Shown here piece by piece: positions 10,008 through 63,249 of a stretch of DNA of 64,000 nucleotides. The stretch's first letter is position 1, and every line of letters begins with the position of its first letter. The position numbers and the translations under genes were made by a program. The stretch spans positions 142,972,001-143,036,000 of the forward strand of contig CM097882.1 in assembly GCA_044892505.1 (NCBI GenBank), written 5' to 3'. The notes under the pieces are model-generated. The model had not been told where the DNA came from and made no database searches. It saw nothing but the letters and a program-made list of their open reading frames with translations. This DNA comes from Schmidtea nova. Its lineage: Eukaryota.

Positions 10008-12229
10008 GGTGTGCGGACGATTCATCCCTGGACGATTCATCCCTGGACGATTCATCCCTGGACGATTCATCCCTGGACGATTCATCCCTGGACGATTCAT
10101 CTCTGGACGATTCATCACTGGACGATTCATCCAGGAAAACTCATCATAGGACCATTAATCCAAATTAAATAACGAATTTACTGGAGTAACTAGTGCAAAA
10201 GTTACTGATTGTGAATTTATAGTGCTTTGGGTCTTGTTATATTTTTAAACGAAATATCCTTGTATCAATAAACATTATCAAATTATATGAAACAAAATAA
10301 AGTTTTAATTGTGTTACAAATGCGCAATTGCACGAAGATACAATAACACATTTATTTTTCTGTATCCACCAACAGCACGTCTAACTCTTTCGATCCAAGT
10401 CGCGATATTTCTTGACACCAATTTTCTGGATACCAGTAGTTGCTTGCATGAATGCTGTCTTCTGTTTCTGACTATCTTTCTCAACCCCTTCAATCATTAA
10501 CCATAGTGAAGGATGAATGCACATGAAGAGTGATTGGACGCCATGATGTCAGCCTTCCACCATGTTTGTTGTACGAGCTATACCATCTCCAGCTGATTCG
10601 TACCAATGCCACATCGGGATTGGAAACATATCTGAGCCATAATTGTTGCCTCTGTCTTGGAGTCATCGACGTCTAATTTAGGTGTGCTCGAAGTAAGATA
10701 GAAATTCGTTCATTCTTTCATGTTCTGCCATGTCTTCAGCTAGCAAGTTGAATGATTCAGCAACATCATCAACCGGAACATGTGCAAGTGCTGATAAACA
10801 TCGAACACTTCCACACAGCACATCGTCAGTTTCGTAATCGTTCTCCATACCAAATTCATTCACCTTGCGAAGAACATTCTGGTTGAGATGAAAGTAACAT
10901 CCTGTTATCGAAGCTCCTGAAAATGCTTGTGAAAATGCTCCCATTGTCGCTGACTCAAAATCGGTTAAGATCGTTTTTGGTGCAGTTCTTGGCATAAGAT
11001 TCTTGAATTCCATTATAAGATGGTTATAGGTTGATCGGGTCTTGTTCGGCAATAGATAATATACTACGGCAGGATTTATTCCTTTGATGAACTGAAAATG
11101 TTTACTGTACATCTGGAAAAAGATTGAGAGTACCACCTTGAAAGTGCCATCAGCCAATCAGATGTCGGATTTGGCTAGACCACCAAGAGGCATTCTTTCG
11201 ACCAAGATGATAAGCCGATCATACCCGATCCAAAATCAAATAATAATAGATTGATAAATTTTGATGGGATATCAAAGCTGAGATCAGTTGGTGTTTGTGG
11301 TAAGGTCTGCTGGTTATCACCGCTTGACAATGCAGTTTGACGATGACGACGCATAACACGGTTTAGAAAGGTTTTCTTAAGCAAGGCCATCGATACATGT
11401 GGACCCAAATCAACCATAACCGCACCAGAAAACGAACATGGTGTTGCTACAGTTTCTGTCATTTTCTTCTTCATGTCTCCGAAAGCGGCTCGTGCAAGTG
11501 CTTTATGACATTACTGATATGAGTGTGGTCTGGTGACTGATCTCCGATCTATCTGTTAGCAGTCGTGCTTTGCAGTTGAAAACCTGGTGTTTGCAACACC
11601 ACCATTGTGTTTGTCCTTGTGCGTTCTCTCTTTTTCTTCAGTATTCGTAGTTTCGATGTATGACTGTTTGCTTTCCACGTTTCGATGTTCCAAAGTTTAC
11701 TGTTGTCATAACGTATTTATTTTATGGTTTTTATTAATTGTTTTTCATTAAGTAATCAATAAGCCTATTTATTTATTGAGATTTATTCGTTTATGATTAA
11801 AATAAAATCATGAAATAACCTATTTATACCAAGACTATATTATAAAAATTGCGAAAAAAAACTTTATATGAAACTATGAAAAAGCTTTCGTGTCACGTAC
11901 TTTGAATCATGACGTTACCGTGGTATTAATATGGCCAACCATTGTATATATAGATATACAACGTTGCATAAAATTTTAAAACTTTATTACAACGGCAAAT
12001 TGTATTGGAAATTTGGCTTGTTATGGTATAACCTCTGATATTGACAATAGAAGGGGAATTAAAACACCATAACTTAATTGCTAAGCACACTCATATAATA
12101 CTGTAAAAATGACTTCTTTTCAATTTATTTATTTTGGATGAATGGTCCTGAGATGAGTTTTCCGGGATGAATCGTCCAAGGATGAATCCTCAACTGGATG
12201 AATCGTTCGGGATGAACAGTCCCAAATTC
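10008..12229 (-). mobile_element. MULE (Mutator-like) DNA transposon, decayed
   Basis: Transposase motifs ADGTFKVV, TDFESA and GCYFHLNQ (ORF 10678-11157, upstream piece 11175-11474); inverted repeats ~10015-10170 vs ~12121-12223; TSD not found. Confidence 0.85.
10015..10134. repeat. 15-bp tandem repeat GGACGATTCATCCCT x8 in the left MULE TIR
   Basis: Direct count; inverted degenerate copies at 12136-12223. Confidence 0.95.
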
Positions 12230-16429: not shown

Positions 16430-17463
16430 TATATGAAATTTCTAAATTAAATTATATATATTTTCAATAATACATGTATTTTATCTAAAGAAATTAATCA
16501 ATGATAATCATCTTCAAACTGTATCAAAATTTTGATAGAGTTTGACGATGATTATCATTAATTAATTTGCTTACATATGTATTTAGTTGTCTGATTTATT
16601 CTCATTGTTCTCTTGCAATCTTCGTGTTATTTACTATATAAATTTACAGCTGAGTTCGTGTAAATTCATGTTTATTTTTAATATATGTTTTATTTTTATT
16701 ATATACCTATTGTAAGATAATTTTAAGAGATTTATTAGGCGATTATGTAAGATTTTAATTATAAACTTCTTGTGCACGATCAGATTTTGAGGTAATCTCT
16801 TCATTTAAACAAATTAAATTTTTGATTTCACCTGCTGGGTTTATGGGTGTGTTTTAAATAATTAATAATAAATAATTAAACAAATAATAATAAATAAGTA
16901 TACTAGGGATGCCTCACCCATAACCATACATAAAAACAAATCGTCTCACTCGCGCGCCCCTAAGTATTCCCTATCTAGTTAGGTTGGAACTGCGTGCGGC
17001 GGTTGAAAAATGATGGGCAGGTGAGCTCCATCGCTGGAACTACTCCCCATTTATTTTCACGGGCCCCTGCTGCCTGCTAGGAGGTCTTACACTGGTATTC
17101 TATCGTCATCTACGCTTAACTTCAAACAAAAATCGTATTTCAACTAAAAATTTAAGTCAGCTACAATTCCTGAATTTCGAAAAACGAAATAAAGTGATAC
17201 ATCGTAAAAATTCATTTATTTATAAAAATTCTCGGAAATCTAATTTATTAAGTATAACTGTTAAAAAACCCAAAATCACCACTATGTCGTTGCATCGCTA
17301 TGTGCAAAAAATTCTTGATCGAATTCGTCTTGCGATAATTTTAATTCTGAACTTAAATCACCAGGTGAAATGTAAAATTCGTGTAAGTAGTGAGATAATG
17401 GCCCTTTGGCGCACTTAAATTCTACCCACCCCCCCCCCCACCCCCCTAGAAAATTTTTTTCTC

Positions 17464-17820
17464 TGCGTTGACGGGCCACTATGTTTTTTCTGGCAATTTT
17501 TGTATTGGAAATTTATTGTCGGTCTTTTGTACAGGTGCGTTGACGGGCCACTATGTTTTTCTGGTCATTATTGTATTGGAAATTTATTGTCGGTCTTTTG
17601 TACAGGTGCGTTAGCGGGCCATTATGTTTTTGGGTCAATCTTTGTATTGGAAAATTTTCGTCGGTCTTTTGTACAGGTGCGTTAGCGGGCCATTATGTTT
17701 TTGGGTCAATCTTTGTATTGGAAAATTTTCGTCGGTCTTTTGTACAGGTGCGTTAGCGGGCCATTATGTTTTTGGATCGATCTTTTTTATTGGAAAATTT
17801 TTGTCGGTCTTTTGTACAGG
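17464..17820. repeat. 71-bp subterminal tandem repeat, 5 units (left arm)
   Basis: Unit starts at 17464, 17536, 17607, 17678, 17749. Confidence 0.95.
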
Positions 17821-18363
17821 GATTTTGGGCTCCGAGATTTTTCTCAGGCAAAAAGGGACTGGTATTTTGTACATGGAATTTTGGTCGAGGTTTTTGTAAA
17901 GCATTTTCTACTCCCAGATCCTATCTAGGACAAAAAGAGACTCTAGTAATTATTATACAGAAATTTTCAAGAGATTTTTATGGTAAATAAAAACACGTGT
18001 AAATTTATCAAAATGTTAAATAGATTTAAATGGTTTTTATTTCTATGGTAAAATACAAAGACAAAAGAATGACATAATATTTAAAATTTAAGAAAAAAAA
18101 GGGTAAAATCAAGGCAATGTGAGAGTTGAAATGACACAATATTTAAAATTTAATAAATAAAAAGGGTAAAATCAATTTTTTGGAGAAATCAGAGTTGGTA
18201 AATTTTTAAATATAAAATTAAATTCTTTTTCACAAAATGAAATTAATTTTTCACAAAATTCTTTTTTAAACCAATAAAAGTCTTAACTAATAAAAAGAAA
18301 AATTTTTAACTAATAAAAAGAAACATTTTTAACTAAATTTTATTAAAATAAATACAAATTTTA

Positions 18364-21300
18364 TTAAAATAAATCTTCTTCATCGTCTTCTTCTGTAACT
18401 TGATTGAATTCTCTGTCATTAGTGTCTTTATAATGCCCGTATGCACAACTTTCATTTTTTCCCACCCAAACCCTTTTATCATCATTATTAGTTAGTGCAA
18501 TTTTTGAATTTTTAAAGCTATATAACTGATGATTTTTTGTACCTATTCTAAATTGTGGTACACTAATCTCTGAGTTATTTAAATAACATTTTACATATGA
18601 ATCGTGGTCTATTTTAGTATCCTTTAATGTTGCTCCCTTAGCCTTTGTAGTATTAGTTTTACCCAACAAGCTGTAACATTTTGGTCTAAGGAAAATCCAC
18701 TCATCATATCCTTCACCCTTACTTTCATCTTTGAATTTTCCAATAACAGAATCCAATTTCTTGCTGTATAGTGGGTGATCAGTTGGATAATTTGATGTAT
18801 CTAACAAGTTATCATTTTTCATTTCATTTAATAATATTTCTAATTTTAGATTTTTAATTTCTAGAAAAAACGAATCTGTATCGCCTGCTACGATATTTAT
18901 CTGACAACTATATTTGTCGCGATATTTTTGTAAATCTTTGTATTGTAATTCGTACATTCGAAGTTTTGATAAATCAAGCACCGATTGTCCAATATAACTC
19001 GGTCTATCTAAACAAATCGAATCTGGATTTAATAAAGCAGCAACTAAATTATCGTCGATTTTAATAGATTTTTTGAAAGAAGGTTTTGATGTATATTTAA
19101 CTAGTTTTTTCTCCGTTGAACATAATCTTAAATTCATTCTCCTTTTAAGATTTTCCACTGTTTTGCCATACAGACTATTATTGAGTAATTTGAAAAAGTT
19201 TTTATCTAAAGTATTAGTACTTTTCGCCCGCAATTCAGTGTTGGTGTCTATATACTTTTTGAAAATTGGAGATTGTTTAAATTTAACTGCTCTATTTATC
19301 TTTGTGACTTTAACACCAAGTCCTAAATATAATTGAAGTAATCGCCAATGAATTATATAATTATTTTTAGGGTAATGAGTCAATAGTAATTTTTCTACTT
19401 TTGAACCTCGTGGTTTCATTTTTTCTGCAGCTACCGGGAAATCATCCAAGAAATCATGAATTTCAGCAGGTATTTCCAAATCTACCTCTAAAGTGTAACC
19501 GTAAGATATAGATTCAAGATTTAGATTAATACAGTCATGCAAAATATTATCTAAATTATCAGTCACCCAACTAAATTCTCCACAAGGTAAAGGTTCACTT
19601 AAAGCCCATCCGTAAAGATTATTTATATCGATATACAATAATTCTGTATTTTCATCTGTTTTAACGAAGTGTTTATTTACAAAAGTCAAACCTCCTCGAA
19701 TTCCCCCTTCATAAAAGCTAAACATTTCATTTTCTGTTATTAATTCTATTGGTTCATCTAAAGTCATTAAAGAAGATGACCAAGACATGCCAGGAATACC
19801 GAAGTAATTCAATGGCTCTAATCTATTGTGAGCTATAGATTTGGTTCGAAATTGCTGAAAGAAATCAGCCAAAAGAAAGCAATCAAGTTTCAAGTAAGTC
19901 ATCATATAATCTAAAAGAGTAACACAGTTTGTTTCTGTCCAAATCAGTTGTGCCTTTTCATATTCTTCTTTTGAAACACCTTTCCAGATTGGTGGTAACT
20001 CATAAGTATTTTCAAGTACTTCTAAACTTGTAGCAAAGCTATACGGAAAAATCCCCTTTTCAGAAACTATAGTTCCATTAAAAACCGAATTTGTCAAAGG
20101 TAAAGATTTCAACGTTTTCACTGCCTTTGCCAAAGAATCATTCACAAACTGGTATGAGTCTAAAAATCTTAAACTAATCTTGCCAACATGAGCTATCAAT
20201 GAAATAAATTTTTCAGTTGTAATAGGTATACAACCCAATGACCAATTCTTGAACTTATTTAATCCGTGTTTAAGAATATGGTGCATATCATATCCTTTCA
20301 AGTTATGAAAAACTATTGGTAAAGACTTGTTGATTTTTCTATTAATGTTACACGTTTGACATGCTGCACCTAAATATTTCCCAGTGAAATGATCATGGTC
20401 TCTTACAGGATCTACGATATTTTTCATGCAAAGGTAACAAGTAGTACCATTTTTAAATTGATCCTCTTCAATTTCAGTCAATCTATTCATTGGTTTGTTT
20501 CCATTTTTATTGTAATATGGAAGAACTTTTAATAAAGCAATATTTTCAATCGCTTTTAAAAATTCATCTACACAATTTAGTCCAATAAATTGTTGGTAAG
20601 ATTTTGTCCCATCAAAGTTATTTATTAACAAAAGCCCCGCAGAAATAGGCAAGTGTTTCTGATAATATACATCATCCTTTGGTAAAATAGCTTCAAAGTC
20701 TGCATAAATAACAAATGGTGGGGTAACAGTTTTTGACCAATCTGAAAATTTAAGCATTTTATTTTCCGGGAAAGTGTATAATGTTGTTCCTAGTTGATTT
20801 TTTCTGCATAAAATCTCATGTTTTTCCAACGATATTTTATTTGGGAAACCATTTAAACATCTACTGCACCATTCGCTTCTTATCCTAGTAGTACAATAAA
20901 TGCTTTGGTGACAATTCATTAAACGTTTTAAATTTATAATAGGTACATAATGATATTTTTCCCCTTCATTTAATAACAATAAATTTATAGTTTTTCCTTC
21001 TATTACTTTTGACCGATGAATAATATCCAAATGAGGATGCTTTAAAATATAATCATCTTGCTCTTCATTAATTTCATTATTATAACATAGTACATTTATG
21101 ATCAATCCTGGATTCTTTGCTTCGAATTTTCTGATACTATTTAATTTCATGGGCATGTCTGATATATCATATTTGAGCTCTGACAAAAAATTTATATATT
21201 TTGATACTCTTTCTCTATCTCTAGATTTTAAATCATATTTTAATATAGCTAAAATGCTATATAAAAAACATAAATTATCCTTATTATCAATGTTTAATAT

Positions 21301-22585
21301 ACATCTCTTTCCTTTTAATCCTTGAGGAGTTTTTACAATGCTTCTACCTGCTAACCTACTTATATTGGATATCTTAGTTACAACAAAACTTATTTCAGTA
21401 ATACGATTAAGTACCCAACTGCTACCTAATTCCGAAAATGAAGTTATCTTTTCATTCAATTTTTTAATTCCCTCTTCGAAAAATTTCTGTGTCAGAGGTT
21501 TTGCACTATTGGAAATATTGTTTCTTTTAATTTCTCCATCTTTCTCAAATTCAACACAGATACCAAATTGTATCTTCACATAGCCTATTTCATTAATTAT
21601 TTCTATTAATTTATTAATTAATGATTGTGGAAAAATAATTTGCTTTATATTTAAATCACTAGTGTTAATTTTTAAAATCCTATGCGATCCATTTAAATCA
21701 CTTTCAATGACAGGGAGAGGTTCTATAACACTTCCTCCAGTTTGATAAAATCCAACGTTCCAAAAATCTTCAATCTCTTCCACCGTTTCAATTAAAATCT
21801 TGTTTTTGTCCGTTTCGTCCGCTTCCATCGCTTCTAATAAAATCTTATCTTCAATCTCTTCTTGTAAATTTTGTGATTTCTTGATTATTTCTATGTTCAA
21901 TTTAATATTTTTATTATTTATAGGGTTTTGAGTCAAGTTTGGTCTTTTAAATAATTTTATTTTCTTAGACCTATATTCATTTAAATGATCCTTATGTTCA
22001 TCGTAAAAATTTTTATATGTAAGGGGTTGGGAAGTTTGGCATACGGGACATATATAATAGCGAATTTTATAATAAGAGTGTCCATAATATTGCTCCATTG
22101 ATCGATGACAATTATCGTTGTGGTCAGTTGAAAAGCAATAATTTGGGTATAAAGCACCTATGAATGTAAATTAATGTTAAAAATAATAATAATATTATCA
22201 AATTATATATTTACAAATATTTTACTATATTTATTTACTAAATTAATTAAAATATAATTAAATTAATTAAAATTAATCAATACTTACATTGGTCATTCAA
22301 TACCACATCAGGTATAACTCCATTATTCATATTATTTTCGTCACTAATAATCTTAGTTTGTACGGTAGTTAGTTCAGTCATATTTACATCACCTAAAGTA
22401 AAAATTAAATAATATATTATGTTTAAGATTAAGTACCATTTTCTTCTGTATTTTCTAACAACGATTTCCCAATTGAATTATTGATATTACCTAAATTACT
22501 ACTAAATGATAATAAATTAAAAAATAAATTTACCGTTTTCTTTCCCACTTGGGTTTTCGTTCATAAAACTTGTTATTGTGTTCAT
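18364..22585 (-). CDS. polB: Intact protein-primed family B DNA polymerase, spliced, ~1334 aa; exons 22585-22534, 22490-22437, 22392-22288, 22157-18364
   Basis: ExoI VIYADFE, ExoII FHNLKGYD, ExoIII YLKLD; Pol motifs YIDINNLYG, KLLNNSLYGK, AGDTDS; C2H2-like CSRC..H..C; HNH/EndoVII-like CYLC..DHDH..CQTCN; three GT-AG phase-1 introns add 90 in-frame codons to the 1244-aa ORF. Confidence 0.92.
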
Positions 22586-22634
22586 TTTTAATGTTTATTA
22601 TTTGTAAAAGTGAATAATGAATGAAAAAGTATTG

Positions 22635-22734
22635 TTTATATATCAAAGTTATTACACACACATAACCTTTGACCAATAAAAATCGAGTAAGGGGTAGGAA
22701 ATTTATTCTTATCAACCAATCAGAATCGAGTAAG
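22635..22734 (-). promoter_or_regulatory. PolB promoter, left arm: two CCAAT boxes plus TATA
   Basis: GACCAATAAAAATCGAGTAAG and AACCAATCAGAATCGAGTAAG; TTTATATATC (TATA on the minus strand) ~50 bp upstream of the ATG; conserved at 63710-63810. Confidence 0.7.
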
Positions 22735-23139
22735 AGGCAGTAAAGGTATTATTATCATCAGATAGAGAATTATGACTAATTATATATTACGTTGCAGTAT
22801 TTTAAAAAAACTAGAAAAGTTATTTCAACAAATTATAATACACATCAAAGTTATAAAATATTTCAATGAATTGCATGCATGTCATATGATTAAAATATAT
22901 TAGACTAAATATTTCAGTAAATTACGTCTAAATTATATTACATTTCAATAATTACGTCAGTTATAAAAAATATTTTAATTAATTTTGATAAAATACATTA
23001 GAATTGTCAATAACACACACAAAACCTTTATAATTTTCATTAGTATATGATAGAAAATTAAATTATATCTACACATGATTACAATAAATATTCGATAAAT
23101 CTATGCTAAATAGTCGAAAAAATCCCAGTATTTTATTAC

Positions 23140-24240
23140 AAAACACGTGTGCATCACAAACATATCAATATACTTAATTTTGAATCAAGCCATTTTATAG
23201 ATATTTAAATTTTATCTATATGTAATTACAATGAAAACTCACTAAAGTTATTTTAAATAACTAAAACTTACAAAATTAATTACAAAACACGTGTGTAACA
23301 CGAAAAACGACAACTTTTAGATTTTGAATCAAGCCATTTTATAGGAAATTAAATTTTACATATACTTTATTACAATGAAAAGTCAATAAATTTATTTTAT
23401 ATACATGAAAAATGCAAAATTAATTACAAAACACGTGTGTAACACCAAAAACGACAACTTTTAGATTTTGAATCAAGCCATTTTATAGCAATTTAAATTT
23501 TATCTATACTTTATTACAATGAAAAGTCAATAAATTTATTTTATATACACGAAAAATGCAAAATTAATTACAAAACACGTGTGTATTACAAACACACTAG
23601 CAAACTAATTTTCTAATCAAGCCATTTTATAGGAAATTAAATTGTACTTATACTTTATTACAATGAAAACTCAATAAATTTATTTTATATACACGAAAAA
23701 TGCAAAATTAATTACAAAACACGTGTGTATTACAAAATACAACAACTTTCAGATTTCTAATAAAGCAATTTTGTAGACATTTAAATTTTACACATATAAT
23801 ATTACAAGGAAAACTCAATAAATTTATTTTATATACACGAAAAATATAAAATTAATTACAAAACACGTGTGCATTACAAACACACCAACAAACTAAATTT
23901 CTAATCAAGCCATTTTATAGGAAATTAAATTTTACTTATACTTTATTACAATGAAAAATACATAAAGTTACTTTATATTGTTAAAAATTTGAAAATTCAA
24001 AATAAAACACGTGTGCATCACAAAATACGACAACTTTCAGAATTCTAATAAAGCTATTTTGTAGACAATTAAATTTTATCTATACAATATTACAATGAAA
24101 ACTCAAAAAAGTTATTTTATTTAGGTGAAATATACAAATTTAATGACAAAACACGTGTGCACAACAATATACACAACATTTTGAATTTTTAATTCAGCCA
24201 TTTTGTAGACAATAAAATTCTGTCTATCTATTGTTACACT
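23140..24240. repeat. 144-bp tandem array, 8 units, each with an E-box (AAAACACGTGTG), left arm
   Basis: CACGTG at 23144, 23288, 23432, 23576, 23720, 23864, 24008, 24152 (exact 144-bp period). Confidence 0.95.
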
Positions 24241-24297
24241 TAAAACCTGATCAGGCCCAAATAAAGTGTCAAAGAACCCGTCAGAAAAAAACAGGAT

Positions 24298-25087
24298 AGT
24301 AGATAGTTATGAGAAGCATGACTCATCAAAATTACGTCATAATTACGTAACATTTCGTGAACCCCCCTCTCCCCCGTTTTTTTTTTGATGGCGTAATCGA
24401 TGACGTAATTTCAAATTCAAATTTTAAATTTAAATTTCCAAAGGTCAAATAAGGTCAAACCTTCAAACAATGGTATCATTCGAAAGGTCTTGAAGAGGTC
24501 TATCCAATGGTCATACCCTCGAAGGTCTATGGAGGGTCCTTAACCTTCAAGGGGTCAAAAACCTTTAACCTTTTACAATACTTACAAGTTATATATCAAA
24601 CAAAAGGTAATTGAGAGGTAAGTATGATGGTCATACTTTCAAAGGTGTATGGAGTGTCCTGAACCTTGAAAGGGTCAAAAACCTTCAACTTTTTTTAATT
24701 CTTATAATATGTACATCAAACAAAAGGTTTTTGAGAAGTGAGTATGGTAGTCATACCCTTGAAGGTACATGGAGGGTGCTCAACCTTTAAAGGGTCTAAT
24801 ATATATAATATGGGTATCAAACAAAAGCTAATTGAGATGTGCACACAATGGTCGTACCCTTGAAAAGTGCAAGATTCAAAAATTTTAAACCCTAGTAATA
24901 TACATATCATTCGAAAGGTATTTGAGAGATGTAAATGGTAGTTATACGCTCAAAGGTCTATAGTCAAAGGTTCCAAGGTAAAATTTTCAAAAAAAAAAAA
25001 TGTAAAGAATTTACATGGGGGGGGTCACGAAATATTATGTAATTATGACGTAATTTCGATGAGTTATGCTTCTCATAACTATCTACT
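24298..25087. mobile_element. 790-bp central core with its own AGTAG...CTACT termini and 70-bp imperfect inverted repeat
   Basis: AGTAGATAGTTATGAGAAGCAT at 24298; reverse complement ends at 25087; 5 mismatches in 70 bp; flanks are inverted (CAGGAT/ATCCTG), so no TSD. Confidence 0.75.
24474..24960. repeat. About 5 degenerate 90-120-bp direct repeats in the palindrome loop
   Basis: Units begin ATCA(TTCG/AACA)AAAGGT...TTGAGA...GGTCATACCCTTGAAGGT near 24475, 24595, 24715, 24816, 24906. Confidence 0.8.
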
Positions 25088-25144
25088 ATCCTGTTTTTTT
25101 CTGACGGGTTCTTTGACACTTTATTCGGGCCTGATCAGGTTTTA

Positions 25145-26245
25145 AGTGTAACAATAGATAGACAGAATTTTATTGTCTACAAAATGGCTGAATTAAAAAT
25201 TCAAAATGTTGTGTATATTGTTGTGCACACGTGTTTTGTCATTAAATTTGTATATTTCACCTAAATAAAATAACTTTTTTGAGTTTTCATTGTAATATTG
25301 TATAGATAAAATTTAATTGTCTACAAAATAGCTTTATTAGAATTCTGAAAGTTGTCGTATTTTGTGATGCACACGTGTTTTATTTTGAATTTTCAAATTT
25401 TTAACAATATAAAGTAACTTTATGTATTTTTCATTGTAATAAAGTATAAGTAAAATTTAATTTCCTATAAAATGGCTTGATTAGAAATTTAGTTTGTTGG
25501 TGTGTTTGTAATGCACACGTGTTTTGTAATTAATTTTATATTTTTCGTGTATATAAAATAAATTTATTGAGTTTTCCTTGTAATATTATATGTGTAAAAT
25601 TTAAATGTCTACAAAATTGCTTTATTAGAAATCTGAAAGTTGTTGTATTTTGTAATACACACGTGTTTTGTAATTAATTTTGCATTTTTCGTGTATATAA
25701 AATAAATTTATTGAGTTTTCATTGTAATAAAGTATAAGTACAATTTAATTTCCTATAAAATGGCTTGATTAGAAAATTAGTTTGCTAGTGTGTTTGTAAT
25801 ACACACGTGTTTTGTAATTAATTTTGCATTTTTCGTGTATATAAAATAAATTTATTGACTTTTCATTGTAATAAAGTATAGATAAAATTTAAATTGCTAT
25901 AAAATGGCTTGATTCAAAATCTAAAAGTTGTCGTTTTTGGTGTTACACACGTGTTTTGTAATTAATTTTGCATTTTTCATGTATATAAAATAAATTTATT
26001 GACTTTTCATTGTAATAAAGTATATGTAAAATTTAATTTCCTATAAAATGGCTTGATTCAAAATCTAAAAGTTGTCGTTTTTCGTGTTACACACGTGTTT
26101 TGTAATTAATTTTGTAAGTTTTAGTTATTTAAAATAACTTTAGTGAGTTTTCATTGTAATTACATATAGATAAAATTTAAATATCTATAAAATGGCTTGA
26201 TTCAAAATTAAGTATATTGATATGTTTGTGATGCACACGTGTTTT
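25145..26245. repeat. 144-bp E-box array, 8 units, right arm (inverted)
   Basis: Reverse complement of 23140-24240. Confidence 0.95.
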
Positions 26246-26650
26246 GTAATAAAATACTGGGATTTTTTCGACTATTTAGCATAGATTTATCGAATATTTA
26301 TTGTAATCATGTGTAGATATAATTTAATTTTCTATCATATACTAATGAAAATTATAAAGGTTTTGTGTGTGTTATTGACAATTCTAATGTATTTTATCAA
26401 AATTAATTAAAATATTTTTTATAACTGACGTAATTATTGAAATGTAATATAATTTAGACGTAATTTACTGAAATATTTAGTCTAATATATTTTAATCATA
26501 TGACATGCATGCAATTCATTGAAATATTTTATAACTTTGATGTGTATTATAATTTGTTGAAATAACTTTTCTAGTTTTTTTAAAATACTGCAACGTAATA
26601 TATAATTAGTCATAATTCTCTATCTGATGATAATAATACCTTTACTGCCT

Positions 26651-26750
26651 CTTACTCGATTCTGATTGGTTGATAAGAATAAATTTCCTACCCCTTACTC
26701 GATTTTTATTGGTCAAAGGTTATGTGTGTGTAATAACTTTGATATATAAA
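26651..26750 (+). promoter_or_regulatory. PolB promoter, right arm: two inverted CCAAT boxes plus TATATAAA
   Basis: GATTGG near 26664, TATTGG near 26707, GATATATAAA at 26741-26750, ATG at 26800. Confidence 0.7.
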
Positions 26751-26799
26751 CAATACTTTTTCATTCATTATTCACTTTTACAAATAATAAACATTAAAA

Positions 26800-29700
26800 A
26801 TGAACACAATAACAAGTTTTATGAACGAAAACCCAAGTGGGAAAGAAAACGGTAAATTTATTTTTTAATTTATTATCATTTAGTAGTAATTTAGGTAATA
26901 TCAATAATTCAATTGGGAAATCGTTGTTAGAAAATACAGAAGAAAATGGTACTTAATCTTAAACATAATATATTATTTAATTTTTACTTTAGGTGATGTA
27001 AATATGACTGAACTAACTACCGTACAAACTAAGATTATTAGTGACGAAAATAATATGAATAATGGAGTTATACCTGATGTGGTATTGAATGACCAATGTA
27101 AGTATTGATTAATTTTAATTAATTTAATTATATTTTAATTAATTTAGTAAATAAATATAGTAAAATATTTGTAAATATATAATTTGATAATATTATTATT
27201 ATTTTTAACATTAATTTACATTCATAGGTGCTTTATACCCAAATTATTGCTTTTCAACTGACCACAACGATAATTGTCATCGATCAATGGAGCAATATTA
27301 TGGACACTCTTATTATAAAATTCGCTATTATATATGTCCCGTATGCCAAACTTCCCAACCCCTTAAATATAAAAATTTTTACGATGAACATAAGGATCAT
27401 TTAAATGAATATAGGTCTAAGAAAATAAAATTATTTAAAAGACCAAACTTGACTCAAAACCCTATAAATAATAAAAAGATTAAATTGAACATAGAAATAA
27501 TCAAGAAATCACAAAATTTACAAGAAGAGATTGAAGATAAGATTTTATTAGAAGCGATGGAAGCGGACGAAACGGACAAAAACAAGATTTTACTTGAAAC
27601 GGTGGAAGAGATTGAAGATTTTTGGAACGTTGGATTTTATCAAACTGGAGGAAGTGTTATAGAACCTCTCCCTGTCATTGAAAGTGATTTAAATGGATCG
27701 CATAGGATTTTAAAAATTAACACTAGTGATTTAAATATAAAGCAAATTATTTTTCCACAATCATTAATTAATAAATTAATAGAAATAATTAATGAAATAG
27801 GCTATGTGAAGATACAATTTGGTATCTGTGTTGAATTTGAGAAAGATGGAGAAATTAAAAGAAACAATATTTCCAATAGTGCAAAACCTCTGACACAGAA
27901 ATTTTTCGAAGAGGGAATTAAAAAATTGAATGAAAAGATAACTTCATTTTCGGAATTAGGTAGCAGTTGGGTACTTAATCGTATTACTGAAATAAGTTTT
28001 GTTGTAACTAAGATATCCAATATAAGTAGGTTAGCAGGTAGAAGCATTGTAAAAACTCCTCAAGGATTAAAAGGAAAGAGATGTATATTAAACATTGATA
28101 ATAAGGATAATTTATGTTTTTTATATAGCATTTTAGCTATATTAAAATATGATTTAAAATCTAGAGATAGAGAAAGAGTATCAAAATATATAAATTTTTT
28201 GTCAGAGCTCAAATATGATATATCAGACATGCCCATGAAATTAAATAGTATCAGAAAATTCGAAGCAAAGAATCCAGGATTGATCATAAATGTACTATGT
28301 TATAATAATGAAATTAATGAAGAGCAAGATGATTATATTTTAAAGCATCCTCATTTGGATATTATTCATCGGTCAAAAGTAATAGAAGGAAAAACTATAA
28401 ATTTATTGTTATTAAATGAAGGGGAAAAATATCATTATGTACCTATTATAAATTTAAAACGTTTAATGAATTGTCACCAAAGCATTTATTGTACTACTAG
28501 GATAAGAAGCGAATGGTGCAGTAGATGTTTAAATGGTTTCCCAAATAAAATATCGTTGGAAAAACATGAGATTTTATGCAGAAAAAATCAACTAGGAACA
28601 ACATTATACACTTTCCCGGAAAATAAAATGCTTAAATTTTCAGATTGGTCAAAAACTGTTACCCCACCATTTGTTATTTATGCAGACTTTGAAGCTATTT
28701 TACCAAAGGATGATGTATATTATCAGAAACACTTGCCTATTTCTGCGGGGCTTTTGTTAATAAATAACTTTGATGGGACAAAATCTTACCAACAATTTAT
28801 TGGACTAAATTGTGTAGATGAATTTTTAAAAGCGATTGAAGATATTGCTTTATTAAAAGTTCTTCCATATTACAATAAAAATGGAAACAAACCAATGAAT
28901 AGATTGACTGAAATTGAAGAGGATCAATTTAAAAATGGTACTACTTGTTACCTTTGCATGAAAAATATCGTAGATCCTGTAAGAGACCATGATCATTTCA
29001 CTGGGAAATATTTAGGTGCAGCATGTCAAACGTGTAACATTAATAGAAAAATCAACAAGTCTTTACCAATAGTTTTTCATAACTTGAAAGGATATGATAT
29101 GCACCATATTCTTAAACACGGATTAAATAAGTTCAAGAATTGGTCATTGGGTTGTATACCTATTACAACTGAAAAATTTATTTCATTGATAGCTCATGTT
29201 GGCAAGATTAGTTTAAGATTTTTAGACTCATACCAGTTTGTGAATGATTCTTTGGCAAAGGCAGTGAAAACGTTGAAATCTTTACCTTTGACAAATTCGG
29301 TTTTTAATGGAACTATAGTTTCTGAAAAGGGGATTTTTCCGTATAGCTTTGCTACAAGTTTAGAAGTACTTGAAAATACTTATGAGTTACCACCAATCTG
29401 GAAAGGTGTTTCAAAAGAAGAATATGAAAAGGCACAACTGATTTGGACAGAAACAAACTGTGTTACTCTTTTAGATTATATGATGACTTACTTGAAACTT
29501 GATTGCTTTCTTTTGGCTGATTTCTTTCAGCAATTTCGAACCAAATCTATAGCTCACAATAGATTAGAGCCATTGAATTACTTCGGTATTCCTGGCATGT
29601 CTTGGTCATCTTCTTTAATGACTTTAGATGAACCAATAGAATTAATAACATAAAATGAAATGTTTAGCTTTTATGAAGGGGGAATTCGAGGAGGTTTGAC

Positions 29701-31021
29701 TTTTGTAAATAAACACTTCGTTAAAACAGATGAAAATACAGAATTATTGTATATCGATATAAATAATCTTTACGGATGGGCTTTAAGTGAACCTTTACCT
29801 TGTGGAGAATTTAGTTGGGTGACTGATAATTTAGATAATATTTTGCATGACTGTATTAATCTAAATCTTGAATCTATATCTTACGGTTACACTTTAGAGG
29901 TAGATTTGGAAATACCTGCTGAAATTCATGATTTCTTGGATGATTTCCCGGTAGCTGCAGAAAAAATGAAACCACGAGGTTCAAAAGTAGAAAAATTACT
30001 ATTGACTCATTACCCTAAAAATAATTATATAATTCATTGGCGATTACTTCAATTATATTTAGGACTTGGTGTTAAAGTCACAAAGATAAATAGAGCAGTT
30101 AAATTTAAACAATCTCCAATTTTCAAAAAGTATATAGACACCAACACTGAATTGCGGGCGAAAAGTACTAATACTTTAGATAAAAACTTTTTCAAATTAC
30201 TCAATAATAGTCTGTATGGCAAAACAGTGGAAAATCTTAAAAGGAGAATGAATTTAAGATTATGTTCAACGGAGAAAAAACTAGTTAAATATACATCAAA
30301 ACCTTCTTTCAAAAAATCTATTAAAATCGACGATAATTTAGTTGCTGCTTTATTAAATCCAGATTCGATTTGTTTAGATAGACCGAGTTATATTGGACAA
30401 TCGGTGCTTGATTTATCAAAACTTCGAATGTACGAATTACAATACAAAGATTTACAAAAATATCGCGACAAATATAGTTGTCAGATAAATATCGTAGCAG
30501 GCGATACAGATTCGTTTTTTCTAGAAATTAAAAATCTAAAATTAGAAATATTATTAAATGAAATGAAAAATGATAACTTGTTAGATACATCAAATTATCC
30601 AACTGATCACCCACTATACAGCAAGAAATTGGATTCTGTTATTGGAAAATTCAAAGATGAAAGTAAGGGTGAAGGATATGATGAGTGGATTTTCCTTAGA
30701 CCAAAATGTTACAGCTTGTTGGGTAAAACTAATACTACAAAGGCTAAGGGAGCAACATTAAAGGATACTAAAATAGACCACGATTCATATGTAAAATGTT
30801 ATTTAAATAACTCAGAGATTAGTGTACCACAATTTAGAATAGGTACAAAAAATCATCAGTTATATAGCTTTAAAAATTCAAAAATTGCACTAACTAATAA
30901 TGATGATAAAAGGGTTTGGGTGGGAAAAAATGAAAGTTGTGCATACGGGCATTATAAAGACACTAATGACAGAGAATTCAATCAAGTTACAGAAGAAGAC
31001 GATGAAGAAGATTTATTTTAA
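26800..31021 (+). pseudogene. polB: Right-arm pPolB with one premature stop; exons 26800-26851, 26895-26948, 26993-27097, 27228-31021
   Basis: GAA>TAA at 29651-29653 splits the ORF into 788 + 453 aa; otherwise differs from the left copy by 4 missense changes. Confidence 0.92.
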
Positions 31022-31564
31022 TAAAATTTGTATTTATTTTAATAAAATTTAGTTAAAAATGTTTCTTTTTATTAGTTAAAAATTTTTCTTTTTATTAGTT
31101 AAGACTTTTATTGGTTTAAAAAAGAATTTTGTGAAAAATTAATTTCATTTTGTGAAAAAGAATTTAATTTTATATTTAAAAATTTACCAACTCTGATTTC
31201 TCCAAAAAATTGATTTTACCCTTTTTATTTATTAAATTTTAAATATTGTGTCATTTCAACTCTCACATTGCCTTGATTTTACCCTTTTTTTTCTTAAATT
31301 TTAAATATTATGTCATTCTTTTGTCTTTGTATTTTACCATAGAAATAAAAACCATTTAAATCTATTTAACATTTTGATAAATTTACACGTGTTTTTATTT
31401 ACCATAAAAATCTCTTGAAAATTTCTGTATAATAATTACTAGAGTCTCTTTTTGTCCTAGATAGGATCTGGGAGTAGAAAATGCTTTACAAAAACCTCGA
31501 CCAAAATTCCATGTACAAAATACCAGTCCCTTTTTGCCTGAGAAAAATCTCGGAGCCCAAAATC

Positions 31565-31850
31565 CCTGTACAAAAGACCGACAAAAATTTTCCAATAAAA
31601 AAGATCGATCCAAAAACATAATGGCCCGCTAACGCACCTGTACAAAAGACCGACGAAAATTTTCCAATACAAAGATTGACCCAAAAACATAATGGCCCGC
31701 TAACGCACCTGTACAAAAGACCGACGAAAATTTTCCAATACAAAGATTGACCCAAAAACATAATGGCCCGCTAACGCACCTGTACAAAAGACCGACAATA
31801 AATTTCCAATACAATAATTGCCAGAAAAAACATAGTGGCCCGTCAACGCA
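31565..31850. repeat. 71-bp subterminal tandem repeat, 4 units (right arm)
   Basis: Reverse complement of the left array with one unit fewer. Confidence 0.95.
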
Positions 31851-33012
31851 GAGAAAAAAATTTTCTAGGGGGGTGGGGGGGGTGGGTAGAATTTAAGTGC
31901 GCCAAAGGGCCATTATCTCACTACTCGTGTAAACTTCAAAATTATCGTTAAAAAATGTGCACACCCCAAAACCTATCGCTATGTAAAACTCACAATCATT
32001 GCTATGTAATAAAAATTGTGCAACACTCAAAATACTATCACTATATGCAACAATCAAAAAACTATCGCTATTAAAAATATGTTACCAAATACTATTCACT
32101 ATGTGCAACGATCAAAATGTTTTATCAAAACTATTCACTATGTGTAACGATCAAAATGTTTAACAAAACTATTCATAATGTGAAACCTCTATTAAAACCA
32201 TTTTACATATAAGAATCTTATCTCACTCAACATTTCGTGGAGCTAAAGAGTCCCAGAAAGACGACTTGCGCCCTCGCAGCGTGAGCTACTGAGGAAGCAT
32301 ATTTATATTTATAAATGACAATTTTATATAATAAACATCATAGAATATCTATTAAATCAAATCAAATCATAGTAACCATTACAAACAAAATCCACAAAAT
32401 TTACATGATCAAAGCTGGCTGGTGAAATCTTTACCGGAATCTGTGCAAATTTTTAATTTCAAAAAAAATGTTCTCCGCGAGTTGAAATTATGAATTTCTA
32501 ATGCCTTTATATACTATTTTTGATATCGGTGTGTCCATTACTGATGCGGGGTTTCTATACAACTGTTAGCAAAGCTGTTGGTGTATGTGGCCGCTTTTCT
32601 GTCGGTTTTCTCTCATCTTACCGACCCCCAACACCAGTCGCTCGGACATTACGTGTGATATCGCATGTTGACTCTGTCGAGACTGCATGCACGTAATATC
32701 CATTTATTTTTATTTTTCTATTTTTACAACATTTTTTAACATTACTAATTAGTTTTCAACGGCCATTTAACCAAATCAAAACACGCTACCACAAATCGGG
32801 TAGTCACTTATTGTTATTGATCCGGTGATTAAATAAAATCATTTCAAATTACTGTTGCGTTGCAAATTACGACAACGCGATTTCGCAACTACACAAATAA
32901 AATTCAATCTCATTTATTTTAAAAATTAAAATTACAATTAAAAGAATAAAAACAAGGTTTTCCTATAACATACGAACCTGTATATTTATTTGTATATTAA
33001 ATTACTAATTAA

Positions 33013-35293: not shown

Positions 35294-35917
35294 TCAGTGA
35301 TTCGATAAGTCTCTTTCCGCTTCATCTAAATCCCAATTGCACATTGACAATGTGTGGATTGAGAGCTCCTTCGCGTATCCCATGCCAACCAAATGGCTGA
35401 TCTTTGATTCGAAATCATCAAATTCATCTTTTCTTGGACCTCCTGCATAAAAATGATTCCAAAATGCTGCAGTTTTATCAAATAGATCTCTGTCATTTAT
35501 ATATTGTTTAGCAACGATTGCATCTTGAGGATCATTCGGTTCTGCTTGAATGAGTAACGAAGATATTCCGACCATAACCGTCAATAGATTTTGAGAAGTT
35601 GTCCATTTATCACTGAGTATATCAAGACAAATACACCCAGTTGCAGAACTGATATTCGGATGCCAAACCTTTGTGATGAAATAAGCCCGCGGAGGCTTTG
35701 TTGGATATTCTTTGGGAATGTTGAAGTCGACTTCGTAAGATCCCTCTTGATATGGAGAACCTGGAAATCCTGTAAAAGTTCCAATGAGTTTAGAGGTATC
35801 GTTTTGTGCATTTAGTCGAACCGAAATCCCTTCTGGATTTCTTTTATGAATAAGATTCAATTCATTAAGAATTCTTTTAGTACCGAAGTTTCTAGGATTA
35901 AGCATTTCAATTGACAT
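35294..35917 (-). CDS. UBE2K: Ubiquitin-conjugating enzyme E2 with C-terminal UBA domain (UBE2K/Ubc1-like), intronless, copy 1
   Basis: KRILNEL, PGSPYQEG, YPTKPP, WHPNISSATGCICLDIL (catalytic Cys), EPNDPQDA, UBA LVGMGY; 207 aa. Confidence 0.92.
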   Translation of the reverse strand: MSIEMLNPRNFGTKRILNELNLIHKRNPEGISVRLNAQNDTSKLIGTFTGFPGSPYQEGSYEVDFNIPKEYPTKPPRAYFITKVWHPNISSATGCICLDILSDKWTTSQNLLTVMVGISSLLIQAEPNDPQDAIVAKQYINDRDLFDKTAAFWNHFYAGGPRKDEFDDFESKISHLVGMGYAKELSIHTLSMCNWDLDEAERDLSNH

Positions 35918-38415: not shown

Positions 38416-40500
38416 TCACTTTGGCCTCAAGGATCCCAGCCTGATATGGTCTCTGAATATAGTAAAATTTCGTCCTTCCAAAATATGTGAAAAATGTTTG
38501 ATTGCGAGGTAAACTGTTAAGAGTTCGCGGTTGAAAGTTGAGTACTTTTGTTGTGCCGCGTTCACTTTTTGTGAATGTAATTCTAAAGGATCGGGCGTTC
38601 CTTGATTGATTTGGTGCAAAACAGCTCCGATTGATGTGTTCGATGCGTCTGTCGTCAATGTGATTGGAAAATCTAGTTTTATGTATGCCAGTGTATGTAT
38701 TTTTATTAGTGACTCATTAGCTTTATTAAAAGAGTGTAGAGCTTCGTTGCTCCATTTAACTAGTTCATATTTCTTGCCATTCGACAGATTTGTCATTGGT
38801 GCTAAGATTTCTGAGATTTTAGGTATGAATTTGTGGCAGTAATTTATTGTACCAAGAAAACTTCTGAGTTGTATCACCGTTTTTGGTAGTTCAAATTTTT
38901 TGATGCAATCTAGTCTTTCTTAAAAAAGTCTAATTCCATCACTTCTAATGGCATGTCCTAAAATACGAGCTTTTTCTTGAAGAAGCGAACAATTTTTATG
39001 GTTCATTTGTAAGATTTCGAAATGTAGTGAATGAAAGACCAAGTTAATATGCTTTTCATGTTCAGTGATATTTTTAGACCCTATTAAGATATCGTCTAAG
39101 TATGCGACAACAAATTTGAATTTTCCAAGTATATTGTCGATATGTCTTTGAAAAGTTTTGTGCTGCGTTCCTTAGTCAAAAAAGCATGTAGAGATATTTG
39201 TATAACCCAGTTGGTGTAATTAATGCGGTTTTGCATACATATGTGGGAATTATTGGGATTTGGTGATATGCTTTCTGTGAGTCAATCGTTGAAAAGATTT
39301 TGGCGTTCGTTAAACGACGTATAACTTCATTAATATCATTGGTTAAGAATCACGGTTACATTGTTCAGTCTCCTGTAGTCACCACATGGTCAGTTGGTAC
39401 CGTCTTTCTTTTGTACTAAATGTATTGGTGATGCCATGGTGACTGCGATTTTCTGACAATTCTTACTTTTTCGTACTTTTTCGTGAAGTAGCAATGTTGG
39501 AGTAGTGACTATTGAATGTTGGTACACTTCAGTATTATTTACGGAATTGTTCGTACTAGTATTTGTGTTATTCTAACGTTCTAAGAGAGTTTGTATATAT
39601 GGATGTGTATTTCTGTTTAAAGGTATCGTTTCGTTTCAGTTTATTTGATTTTCTGTTATTACTTTGACGGTCTGGTTGTTTGGTATAAATATTTTGCGAT
39701 TCCTTCAGTCGACTAACAGATTTTTTGTTGCTAGGAAATCGGAACCTAATATTGGACAAGTGACATTCGCAAAATAGAATGTCTATTCAAATAAGTTGGA
39801 CATTTGGTCTATACGAAATGTTATGTGTTTAGTTCCAGTAGTATGTACTGATGAGCCGTTAACTGCGCTCAATTGAAGTTTCATGTGTTTGTCTGGGTTG
39901 AAAGTGTTCGGCAGTAAGGATACTCTTGAACCAGTATCTAAAAGTAAATTTAATGGATTTGAGTTGAAGAAAGGTTATTGAAAATGGAAGAAAAAACAGG
40001 AAGTTAGAATGAAGAAGAAATAGAGGAAATTTGGTTGCCGTCGACTTCTGATGCTTGAAGTGAGAACAATACAAGTTTTTTGATTGCTCTTTCTCGAATT
40101 GTGTGAAATTATTGGTTGAATACTTACAACCTTTGAGACATTTTCTTGCTTGATTTTTGTATCGGGCATGGTAAATGCAAACGTCAAGTGTTTTGCATGT
40201 GAATAGTTTATTCTGCCATTCGCAGTCTATATTGCAAACTCTTGCATCTTTTCTAAAGGTTTGGTGAAAATGACAAAGTCGTTTATTTTTGTTGAACGAG
40301 TTGTTTCAGTTGGAACGGTTGGAGTTGTTTCGTGAATGGTTTTTAATGTGCCTATTGTTGCATATTTCTAAGGTTTCTGATATGTCTGTCGTTAAGATTC
40401 TTGCGTTGTTATTAATGAGGGCGTACTCATGTGTATTGAGGTTATATTTTTTATATAATGTATTGAATAGAATTGAAAATTTATCTTTAATATTTAACTA
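38416..40500 (-). mobile_element. Decayed Ty3/Gypsy-like element (gag, RT, RNase H; 3'-truncated)
   Basis: LRSFLGTINYCHKFIP, LTTDASNTSIGAVLHQ, KYSTFNRELL; YLDDILI near 39090; gag CHFHQTF..DARVC near 40200. Confidence 0.85.
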
Positions 40501-43169: not shown

Positions 43170-46100
43170 GTTAGGCGTTTGACGGTATTATCTTGTATTT
43201 TTTTGTGTATTATTAGTTCAGATTGTGTAATAATTGTGTAGGCAAGGAATTGTAGAGCCCGAGAGAGTCTGGCGTTAGCTGTGTGCCAACACTCGGGGTG
43301 TATGCTTTGTAATGTGAAAGTGTTGAAGACAAAATAATAAAACAAATAATAAAATAAATTAATTATTCAATTAACAGTTACGATCACAATATAATGTTTA
43401 TAAAATGTTACTATAAAAAGTTACTCTAACTTTGACGTAATTGAGTCGATTTTGGAAAAGAATCTTAGGAATTTCGAAAAGAATTTAGGAATTGTAACAA
43501 TATTTAGGATTTTGATTTTTCCCTGATAGAGATCTCCCTCGAAAAATTGCTGTCTCCAAATATTGTTGGGCTAGAGTTGTTGAACCGGGAATAGCAACTG
43601 ATTCGTCTAGTTTCCTCTCGGGTTAAAATTTTTATTAAATTTTGGTGATCTTCGGACTTATTTCTTCAAGTTTGATCTTTGTCGGATTAAAATAAGTTAC
43701 TTCCAGAAAATTGGTAGTTATTTTTTCTACTTCGTTTTTTTTAATAGCCTTCTGTAGTCTCTTTTGTTATTTCAATTTCTTCGTCTTATTATTTATTCAT
43801 AAAATTTTATTGTTTTTAAAAAAAAATCAATTTTCGTATTATTGTCTATAGCTTACTATAGTTTATTACTATAGTAAGCTGTTGGATTCAAATTGAAGAT
43901 TTGAATTCTAATAATAATAATAATGATAATCAAAATAATAATAATAATAAAAATAATAATAATAAAAATTAACACAAACAAAAAAAGGGGGGGTTCCCGG
44001 TGACCGCAAAGGCACCGTCCATAACAATGACGGCGCTTACACCATCATACAAGAATAGCAATAATCATAATCATAAAAATAACAACTACCAGCAAACTTT
44101 TCATACACTACACAACTTCCCCCTTTAAAACCGGAGGTTAACATTTGAACGAAAAAGGAAAACAACACTCACGGAATCACCCCAAATTTACATTTTTTTA
44201 TAATAACAGTAACATAGAACCCTTTTTCGTTTTGTTTTGTTTTGTTTTGTTTTTGTTTTGTTTTGTTTGTTTGATTACCCTTTAACACCCGAAATTAAAT
44301 ATTTACATAGAAAAATAAAATAAATCTGTACAAATAACTATGTTGTGCCTGTGTTTTTCTTATGTATGTTTGTGCTCTTTTTTTTTACTTGAGGCAATCG
44401 CTGTAGCGTTTGTTGTATAGAGGTGTGATTATTGTGTCCTTGTCGAACAGTTTTATTGAATTTTTGTAGTTGAATGTGATGTGTTTATTTTTTGTTTGTG
44501 TTTTTGTTTGTGTCGGGGCTTTTTCTTTTGTGGGGTTGTTTGAAGTGTTTTGATTGTTGTGGTATGGTTTAATTCTTCTAAGATTGATTCTTGTTTTAAT
44601 GTTGTCTTTTATTATTGTTGCCACATTTTTGTTAATTTCCAGCAGTTTAAATGGGCCTTCGTATTTTGGTTCGAAACCTTTGGTGAAGGGCTTTTTAATT
44701 AAGACGTAGTTTGTCGTTAGAACTACTTTTCCGTCCATTTCAGAGTTCGCTCTCTTTTTTAGGATTCCTTTTAATTTCTTTTCTACTCTTTCGTTGTTTG
44801 TGTTGGTTGTTTGTTTGTTGGTTTCTGCGTTTTCTGCTGTATTGTTTTTAATTGTTGGGAGGTTTGATTCTCTGCCGAATACTTTGTATGCTGGTCTTTC
44901 ATTGTCGAATGAGTTTGGTGTGTTTCTTAGTCCCAGTAAGATTGTCGGGAGTTGACTTAGCCAATTTCTGTCGTCTGCTTTATTCTGATACTTTCCTTTA
45001 GTGTTCTGTGCAATCTCTCGATTTTTCCGTTTGCTTGAGGGTTGTAAGCGGTTGTGCGGTTTCTTTTTATGTTGTATTTATTGCACAGAGTACTGAATAA
45101 TTCTGATTCGAACTGTCTCCCTTGGTCTGTTATCAATACTTTTGGTTGACCGTAGCGAGTTATTCAATTTAGCTCAATCTTGTTACATATGTTCTGAGCG
45201 GATATTTCTTTTAGTGGGACAATTTCGAACCAGTTTGTTTTTCTGTCGATGATTGTGAGTAGGTAGTTGTACCCGTTGTTTGGTAGTAACGGTCCTACTA
45301 TGTCAATGTGAATCATCTCGTAAGGTTGGCTGCTTGGAAAGTATACTTTTTGTGCTGTTGGTTTCTTTGATATTTTGTTGATTTGGCACTTTTTGCATGT
45401 TTTTACGAAACTTTTGATTTCCTTTCTCATATTTGGCCATATGTATCTGTTGTGGATTATTTCGAAGGTGGCTTTGCTTCCTGGATGACTGATGTCATGT
45501 ATTTTAGAAATACACAATTTCCTAAACTCTTTTGGTAAAAGTATTCTTGGTGTGTTTTCATTGCTGACATCGTACCAAAGTTCATTGATTTTCTCTAATT
45601 TCAGGCTGTGTTTTAAAGGAAGTTCTTTTAAGGTTTCTGATTGTTTGTTTTTAATTTTTTCGTTTTCGAATATTTCGCCAAATTCAAGTGCGTTTATGTC
45701 TGTTTCTATTCTTGACAGAGTATCTGCTGCGATATTTGCGGCGCCAGCGACATAATTAATTGTGCAATTAAATTGTGATATATAATTTAATTGTCTTATT
45801 TGTCGTGGTGATGGGTTTTTCATTTGTATCGCGTTTGTTAACGGTTTGTGGTCCGTATATATTTTGAAGTTTCTTGCTTCCAGTAAGTGTTGGAAGTGAT
45901 TGATGGCTTCATGTATCGCGAGTAATTCTCGGTCAAAGGTTGAGTACCGTGTTTGATGTGTTTTTAGTTTTTTAGAGAAAACCCCGATTGGCTGTTTGCC
46001 GTATTCGTTATCTTGATATAAGGTTGCGCCCATTGCATATCCAGAGCAGTCTGTTGCTAGGTTGTAGTCTAGTTCTGGATTTGGATATCCGAGTAATGTT

Positions 46101-63188: not shown

Positions 63189-63249
<61 letters not shown>

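Follow-up and report, generated by a model that had tools for sequence, protein, structure and literature searches.

The question raised by this locus was whether a Polinton polymerase gene is interrupted by spliceosomal introns, and what their removal would add to the protein. The window, i.e. the whole 64,000-nucleotide stretch of Schmidtea nova DNA that was analysed (contig CM097882.1, positions 142,972,001 to 143,036,000), had been given a sequence-only reading, which proposed three phase-1 introns upstream of the polymerase open reading frame (ORF) and took Polinton PolB genes to be usually uninterrupted. The latter point agrees with the literature, where the core genes are published as intronless (PMC8097293; bioRxiv 2022.07.12.499685; available text of both). 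In the available text of PMC8097293, intact vertebrate Mavericks have genes without introns, terminal inverted repeats (TIRs) of 46-1447 bp and AGT ends, the intact copies having been screened on an intronless basis. For nematode Mavericks, the available text of bioRxiv 2022.07.12.499685 describes intronless core genes, with introns in cargo genes only, and that of bioRxiv 2023.08.22.554363 gives TIRs of 100-1500 bp. The gene model in the window, with its candidate introns, is as follows:

26665-26750, + strand: promoter-like motifs, with reverse CCAAT boxes at 26665 and 26708 and a TATA box at 26743-26750 (putative function)
26800-26851, + strand: leader exon 1, 52 nt, with its ATG in the context AAAA-ATG
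26852-26894, + strand: candidate intron 1, 43 nt, GT-AG, phase 1 (42-47 nt in other copies)
26895-26948, + strand: leader exon 2, 54 nt (54 or 60 nt in other copies)
26949-26992, + strand: candidate intron 2, 44 nt, GT-AG, phase 1
26993-27097, + strand: leader exon 3, 105 nt, ending in the T that begins the junction Cys codon
27098-27227, + strand: candidate intron 3, 130 nt, GT-AG, phase 1, position kept in 8/8 polymerase families
27228-27286, + strand: coding stretch before the internal Met, 59 nt, with Cys 27248, His 27263 and Cys 27275 of a C-x6-C-x4-H-x3-C motif (predicted zinc site)
27287-31021, + strand: main exon of pPolB in the right arm, with a premature stop at 29651-29653
18364-22585, - strand: left-arm mirror image of the complete gene (exon 1, 22585-22534; exon 2, 22490-22437; exon 3, 22392-22288; main exon from 22157)
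57172-63666, - strand: older broken gene copy, with an AGTAG end at 57172 and leader exons at 63666-63362

All the proposed coordinates held: the four segments (52 + 54 + 105 + 59 nt) join into 270 nt, i.e. 90 stop-free codons in frame with the ATG at 27287, and the same frame read unspliced meets a stop at 27212. As in U2-type introns, each candidate has a GT donor and a YAG acceptor and its removal restores an open, conserved frame; YTRAY-like words lie at -16 to -30 from the acceptor, such words being common in DNA this AT-rich. The GC content is 8-14% in introns 1-3 versus 26-35% in the exons. No ATG occurs between the TATA box and 26800, and a similar CCAAT/TATA layout was found ahead of other leader types. 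When 26701-27286 was dinucleotide-shuffled, none of 300 shuffles yielded an open model that starts with ATG and has three AT-rich GT-AG introns, and one yielded a single-intron model; such shuffles erase the AT mosaic as well, and the mosaic and the signals were thus tested jointly. Downstream, the right-arm ORF runs from 27287 for 788 aa to the premature stop and then for 453 aa, and its left-arm mirror (22098-18364) is open for 1244 aa.

The intron sizes and exon lengths reported for the diverged copy were borne out: exons of 55 nt (63666-63612), 60 nt (63567-63508) and 102 nt (63463-63362), two 44-nt introns and a third donor at 63361. In this copy intron 3 measures 1652 nt, within which lie an insertion and a run of Ns, and the polymerase is split into five frames. 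A survey of 90 loci yielded 37 distinct leader sequences, across which exon lengths were only 52/55, 54/60 and 102/105 nt, and the proposed rule of change by multiples of three applied throughout, all four exon indel events preserving the frame. Intron 1 varied from 42 to 47 nt, mostly within a T run, and intron 2 was 44 nt, once 47. The ATG was kept in 37/37, the GT-AG ends of intron 1 in 35/37 and intron 2 with donor 3 in 37/37; leader stop codons occurred in 2/37, each a single copy. In an older subfamily, intron 3 was 123-235 nt long in 19/30 loci (those with an acceptor found). Among the loci examined, the introns were seen only inside Polinton copies.

The leader itself is weakly constrained. 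The suggested comparison of the mini-exons gave dN/dS values of 0.55-0.82 (seven pairs of single copies). Short introns diverge less (3-18%) than synonymous sites (12-35%). Because of this weak constraint and of an Asn content of 22% (15 of the 68 whole leader codons), the case for introns 1 and 2 rests on frame and splice signals more than on codon selection. Exon 1 plus intron 1 resembles exon 2 plus intron 2 (0/1000 shuffles, a score inflated by the splice signals in common), and the five-intron leader of another family is phase 1 throughout, with one exon visibly duplicated; duplication of phase-1 units is therefore a likely route of leader growth.

Further polymerase families were collected by genome searches with distant homologs; their polymerases are ~58-63% identical to that of the window. 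Wherever upstream DNA was read (8/8 families), the conserved Met-x-x-Tyr-Tyr is preceded at 59 nt (56-62) by an AG acceptor, and a GT donor follows directly on the T that closes the last leader exon, giving a split codon TGT or TGC, i.e. Cys (8/8). Intron 3 ranges from 123 to ~1850 nt over the families. The six leader types differ in sequence; their models have 3, 1, 3, 1, 1 and 5 coding introns, a total of 14, each in phase 1. In three types a single coding leader exon follows a UTR intron. The 19 codons before the Met are identical at 7-10 of 19 positions between families and have a pooled dN/dS of ~0.24 (the pairs being non-independent and near saturation). Since the last intron is common to polymerases this far apart, the introns are very likely real and old. 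In two cases the same leader is joined to distant polymerases, which points to leader exchange inside intron 3. The exceptions are a decayed fragment whose acceptor reads AA, a copy preceded by nothing but microsatellite, with no leader within 2 kb, and a palindrome at C1:468.17 Mb that folds back inside intron 3 and is leaderless (two other copies of its family have a leader). The conserved payload of the predicted splicing is one cysteine plus 19 codons, which the sequence-only reading missed. Its picture of long-standing introns with alternative N-termini survives in its first half: the introns appear real and old, and there is no sign of alternative splicing, the leaders differing by family instead. 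Nor would splicing alter the terminal-protein (TP) region, since the predicted TP domain begins ~140 aa after the internal Met.

The 90 added residues comprise a low-complexity leader of ~70 aa, which is not conserved between leader types, and 20 aa of the predicted zinc site. The Cys codon formed at the modelled junction is the opening residue of the C-x6-C-x4-H-x3-C motif, which relatives encode intron-free; this Cys/His module, predicted to bind zinc, is followed by a C2H2-like finger (27335-27400). A model of the intronless version of the module had a pLDDT of 77. Searches with the module gave no Pfam match above the cut-off and no PDB sequence match below E 0.3, a best VIA Z of 2.8, no BFVD match at E 0.001, and Atlas matches of at most 0.90, none with a name; these absences show nothing. 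The phage records searched gave no match.

Farther along, the predicted TP domain (~27700-28030; model elements E158-E261, pLDDT ~70-85) has a four-stranded sheet, two helices, and Ser/Tyr plus Gly before the last strand, as set out for this domain in bioRxiv 2024.03.18.585575, with Gly-Ser in the loop in 8/8 aligned rows. The putative vOTU residues Cys 277 and His 383 are encoded at 28115 and 28433, in a low-confidence part of the model. The main exon then encodes, in order, an exonuclease with an EndoVII insert and the polymerase motifs. PF03175 was matched in the diverged copy (E 4e-17), and the full ORF gave no PF03175 match; by fold, it matched PolB of adintovirus (E 2e-13) and MELD (E 9e-7), both with low TM-scores, and a 452-aa model searched against PDB folds gave weak Y-family polymerase rows only. 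The available text of bioRxiv 2024.03.18.585575, in which the words 'intron' and 'zinc' do not occur, defines the TP and vOTU domains of pPolB and proposes cleavage by the vOTU. If the vOTU cleaves in this way, the leader and the Cys/His module would be left on the DNA ends along with the terminal protein.

For intronless relatives, 50 metagenome loci were scanned for C-x4/6-C-x4-H-x2/6-C-x3-[MLA]-x2-Y; the scan demanded the first Cys, and relatives without it were beyond its reach. The motif occurred ten times in 8/50 loci, with the first Cys within the same exon and mostly a few residues past the start Met. The spacing in locus L227 is exactly that of the window, and L229 and L230 each present a single unbroken ORF (1219 and 1298 aa). 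In six loci, other candidate introns (41-62 nt) were noted, most of them 3' of the motif. In L229 (61-735) the module opens a separate 225-aa protein adjoining the polymerase, and in another locus it occurs twice in tandem (L229:61-735; L259:90-638). A protein search with a 74-aa alignment gave no match, and one with a wider alignment matched only the two intronless proteins. Because the intronless relatives retain the internal Met 24-26 aa from their start (two repeats substitute it), this Met appears to belong to the Cys/His domain. A quick tree placed the eight families in one clade (SH-aLRT 96) beside the database proteins P0001 and P0002, and the intronless loci fell outside it. A single gain of intron 3, which interrupted the first Cys codon in the ancestor of this genome's families and was followed by leader growth, is thus probable and the simplest reading.

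From these comparisons, intron 3 is almost certainly spliced, and introns 1 and 2 very probably are. That all three GT-AG segments are true spliceosomal introns, whose removal would add a variable leader of 70 aa and complete the predicted zinc site ahead of the predicted TP domain, we hold to be quite probable. Since removal of one intron would restore a Cys that unspliced relatives keep, production of the polymerase likely needs the host splicing machinery. Translation might instead begin at an in-frame Met of exon 3 (27004), with intron 3 real, introns 1 and 2 optional or in the 5' UTR, and ~50 aa added. The leader types with a UTR intron are built in this way, and the Met-rich, weakly constrained leader would suit such a start; the ATG at 26800, present in every distinct copy and the first past the TATA box, the frame-preserving indels, and a full-length Polinton family whose ATG-led model has three phase-1 introns and a 60-nt second exon make it improbable. 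More improbable still is initiation at the internal Met (27287), whether as the only start or for an additional isoform driven by a promoter within intron 3, the upstream exons being relics. That Met is invariant in 6/6 families, P0001 and P0002 begin there, one palindrome has no leader, and full-length elements hold CCAAT/TATA-like sequence in the intron; the latter belongs to a nested antisense gene, and gene callers place starts at the first Met after an intron. Purifying selection on the 19 preceding codons also speaks against this start, as do the position of the Met inside the domain of intronless relatives and a T at -3 of it in most families (the leader ATGs have A at -3).

That the introns are chance features of AT-rich DNA and the palindrome a long-read fold-back artefact would fit a very AT-rich genome and almost identical arms. 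Contigs from four public runs, none on record as RNA, span the promoter and the introns with no joint at introns 1-3; they look genomic, and the result, expected for DNA, does not bear on splicing. In a check for processed retrocopies, a 14-nt motif for the exon 1/exon 2 junction had 66 matches versus 24 for a control, and the first 10 fetched included no spliced copy. The empty shuffles, the same junction codon in eight families, and spacers that vary in length and sequence between elements leave this explanation with a minute share of the probability, and its artefact half is already contradicted by the target duplications and unique flanks described below. The element round the gene, a giant palindrome likewise missed by the sequence-only reading, has these parts:

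17386-31925, strand not applicable: palindromic Polinton derivative of 14,540 bp; ends AGTAG, target duplication of 6 bp (CGTGTA), arms 99.8% identical over 6.8 kb
23050-26335, strand not applicable: palindrome centre, with 144-bp tandem arrays (23050-24219 and 25139-26335) round a non-palindromic spacer of ~650 bp

Each arm carries one polymerase gene. No integrase, packaging ATPase, protease or capsid was found in 17386-31925, pPolB being the sole ORF of at least 100 aa. The Polinton hallmarks are present (6-bp target duplication, AG(T) termini), and the layout departs from typical TIRs of ~50-1500 bp round a unique gene block: arms measure 6.4-7.3 kb and spacers 270-650 bp. The element is Polinton-like but not an autonomous member; with Polinton ends, a target duplication, no integrase, and autonomous relatives in the genome, it is a non-autonomous Polinton derivative. 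The central spacer (24368-25017) varies from ~270 to 650 bp between elements, is of at least two unrelated types, and lies in either orientation relative to the arms.

Among 24 regions examined, 16 had both ends and a target duplication and 8 had none within the stretch fetched. Of those 16 elements, 12 were palindromes representing five polymerase families (one of them judged from its gene layout), 3 were full-length Polintons and 1 was an internal deletion. All 12/12 palindromes with both ends called had 6-bp target duplications with unique flanks; an assembly artefact as the source of the palindrome was ruled out by these duplications. Of the 40 best matches, 32 stand in divergent pairs 3.3-4.9 kb apart. 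Exact matches to the acceptor motif of the window family numbered 1129, and a looser motif for other families had 3729 (full-length elements included), with 0 and 1 for the respective controls. In seven elements of the window family, the arms differ at 0-5 of ~4240 nt within an element, versus 3-16 when elements are compared with each other. Eighteen variants are shared by the two arms of a single element and absent elsewhere, 13 are found in one arm, and an identical ORF break was found in both arms of one element.

The full-length Polintons of this genome are 14.5-15.4 kb long, with ~900-bp TIRs, an integrase, an ATPase, a protease and the same intron 3, which in these elements holds the nested antisense gene. 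Their 408-aa putative capsid gave no Pfam match, and near-identical copies of its gene number at least 102. A full-length Polinton bearing the extended end sequence of the window family was not found, AGTAG alone being in common. The nested antisense gene (L119:4834-5340; L133:7760-8273), with two candidate introns of ~45 nt and no Pfam match of note, occurs in full-length elements and in one palindromic family. A TATA-binding-protein-like ORF (L207:8651-9130; PF00352, E 5e-17) adjoins the ATPase in full-length Polintons. The internal deletion (L220-L221, G000:C2:4463202-4472023) is 8.8 kb long, has 158-bp TIRs, and retains the putative capsid and polymerase as its only long ORFs. At L117-L119 (G000:C1:252.70-252.73 Mb), two Polinton lineages are apparently nested, and one of them has a Pfam double-jelly-roll capsid match and a different ATPase.

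Elsewhere in the window, a 4.4-kb element (46756-51187) has AGTAG ends of Polinton type, resembling the ends of two other families, the target duplication GTTGTC, inverted repeats of ~780 bp and no ORF of at least 100 aa. Intronless ubiquitin-conjugating enzyme ORFs (PF00179, 207 aa) lie at 35294-35917 and 54266-54889 (-), both in a 97% identical 1.5-kb repeat; a polymerase copy lies within a few kb of each. Remnants of LTR retrotransposon RNase H/integrase and of a MULE transposase were found at 38416-38796, 45164-46393 and 10678-11112.

A panhandle replication step has been proposed for Polintons. The mechanism proposed here would run as follows. The palindrome would have formed when a full-length Polinton was copied by fold-back at the end that carries the polymerase, and one arm would be recopied from the other around each transposition; gene conversion after insertion is a live alternative for the arm identity. 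Host RNA polymerase II would transcribe the gene from the TATA box near 26743, the spliceosome would remove 217 nt, and translation from 26800 would give 1334 aa where the frame is open. The element would supply its own protein-primed polymerase and borrow the integrase from full-length Polintons of the same genome. After the gain of intron 3, the leader would have grown and been swapped as phase-1 exon modules, and this would account for the phase 1 of all 14 modelled coding introns. Taken as a whole, this describes self-copying, polymerase-only, palindromic Polinton satellites, formed by snap-back, with a host-spliced polymerase in both arms, an arm rebuilt each round, a borrowed integrase, leader exons swapped inside a fixed intron, and a junction completing a new zinc module that is kept with the terminal protein on the DNA ends; for the whole chain, we put the chance a little below even. 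If it is true, the paired arms are a genome-wide record of a single-stranded panhandle step, and mutations common to both arms of one copy make the panhandle model testable from genome data. Should the splicing be as modelled, the polymerase annotations of the whole clade are truncated and lack the conserved Cys/His module, replication depends on host splicing as in adenovirus, and a datable intron gain and an exon duplication in a virus-like element can be followed with the intronless relatives as outgroup.

Literature searches returned no spliced Polinton polymerase gene and no polymerase-only palindromic Polinton; subscription papers and Repbase were largely outside their scope, and an earlier annotation is possible. 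Both features are absent from the available text of PMC8502044, PMC6431247, PMC12220804, PMC10680173 and PMC3014272, and from that of bioRxiv 2024.01.15.575659 and 2026.07.28.741278. Polintons are transcribed and piRNA-targeted in a planarian (PMC8532177, available text).

Compared with Polintons/Mavericks (Eupolintoviridae), the elements have the same pPolB with predicted TP and vOTU, AGT ends, 6-bp target duplications and lengths of 13-15 kb, and their full-length relatives encode an integrase, an A32 ATPase and an adenovirus-type protease; they differ in the modelled introns of the polymerase and, for the window element, in ~7-kb arms that contain the entire gene but no further ORF of at least 100 aa. 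Snap-back or palindromic defective derivatives occur in linear protein-primed replicons, where likewise one end of the replicon is copied back to give two identical origins, whereas the palindromes here are chromosomally integrated with target duplications, retain one polymerase gene per arm and exist in very large numbers.

The nearest parallel for the splicing is the adenovirus E2B region, in which Pol and pTP share a 9-nt exon (HAdV-A31 Pol, c4866-8042 and c13193-13201; PMC2794291 Table 1, available part). In both systems (here as modelled) the N-terminus of a protein-primed polymerase comes from a small upstream exon over a long gene-holding intron, and in the full-length elements intron 3 holds the nested antisense gene in a like manner. 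The adenovirus leader is 9 nt and common to Pol and pTP, whereas one to five family-variable coding leader exons are modelled here, supplying the first base of a conserved Cys codon. Spliceosomal-type introns in integrated polinton-like elements are also known as introners in eupolintoviral proviruses of dinoflagellates, described in the available text of PMC12166617 as mostly recent host-derived insertions depleted from coding regions; by contrast, the introns modelled here appear to be inherited with the element and fixed in a replication gene across families.
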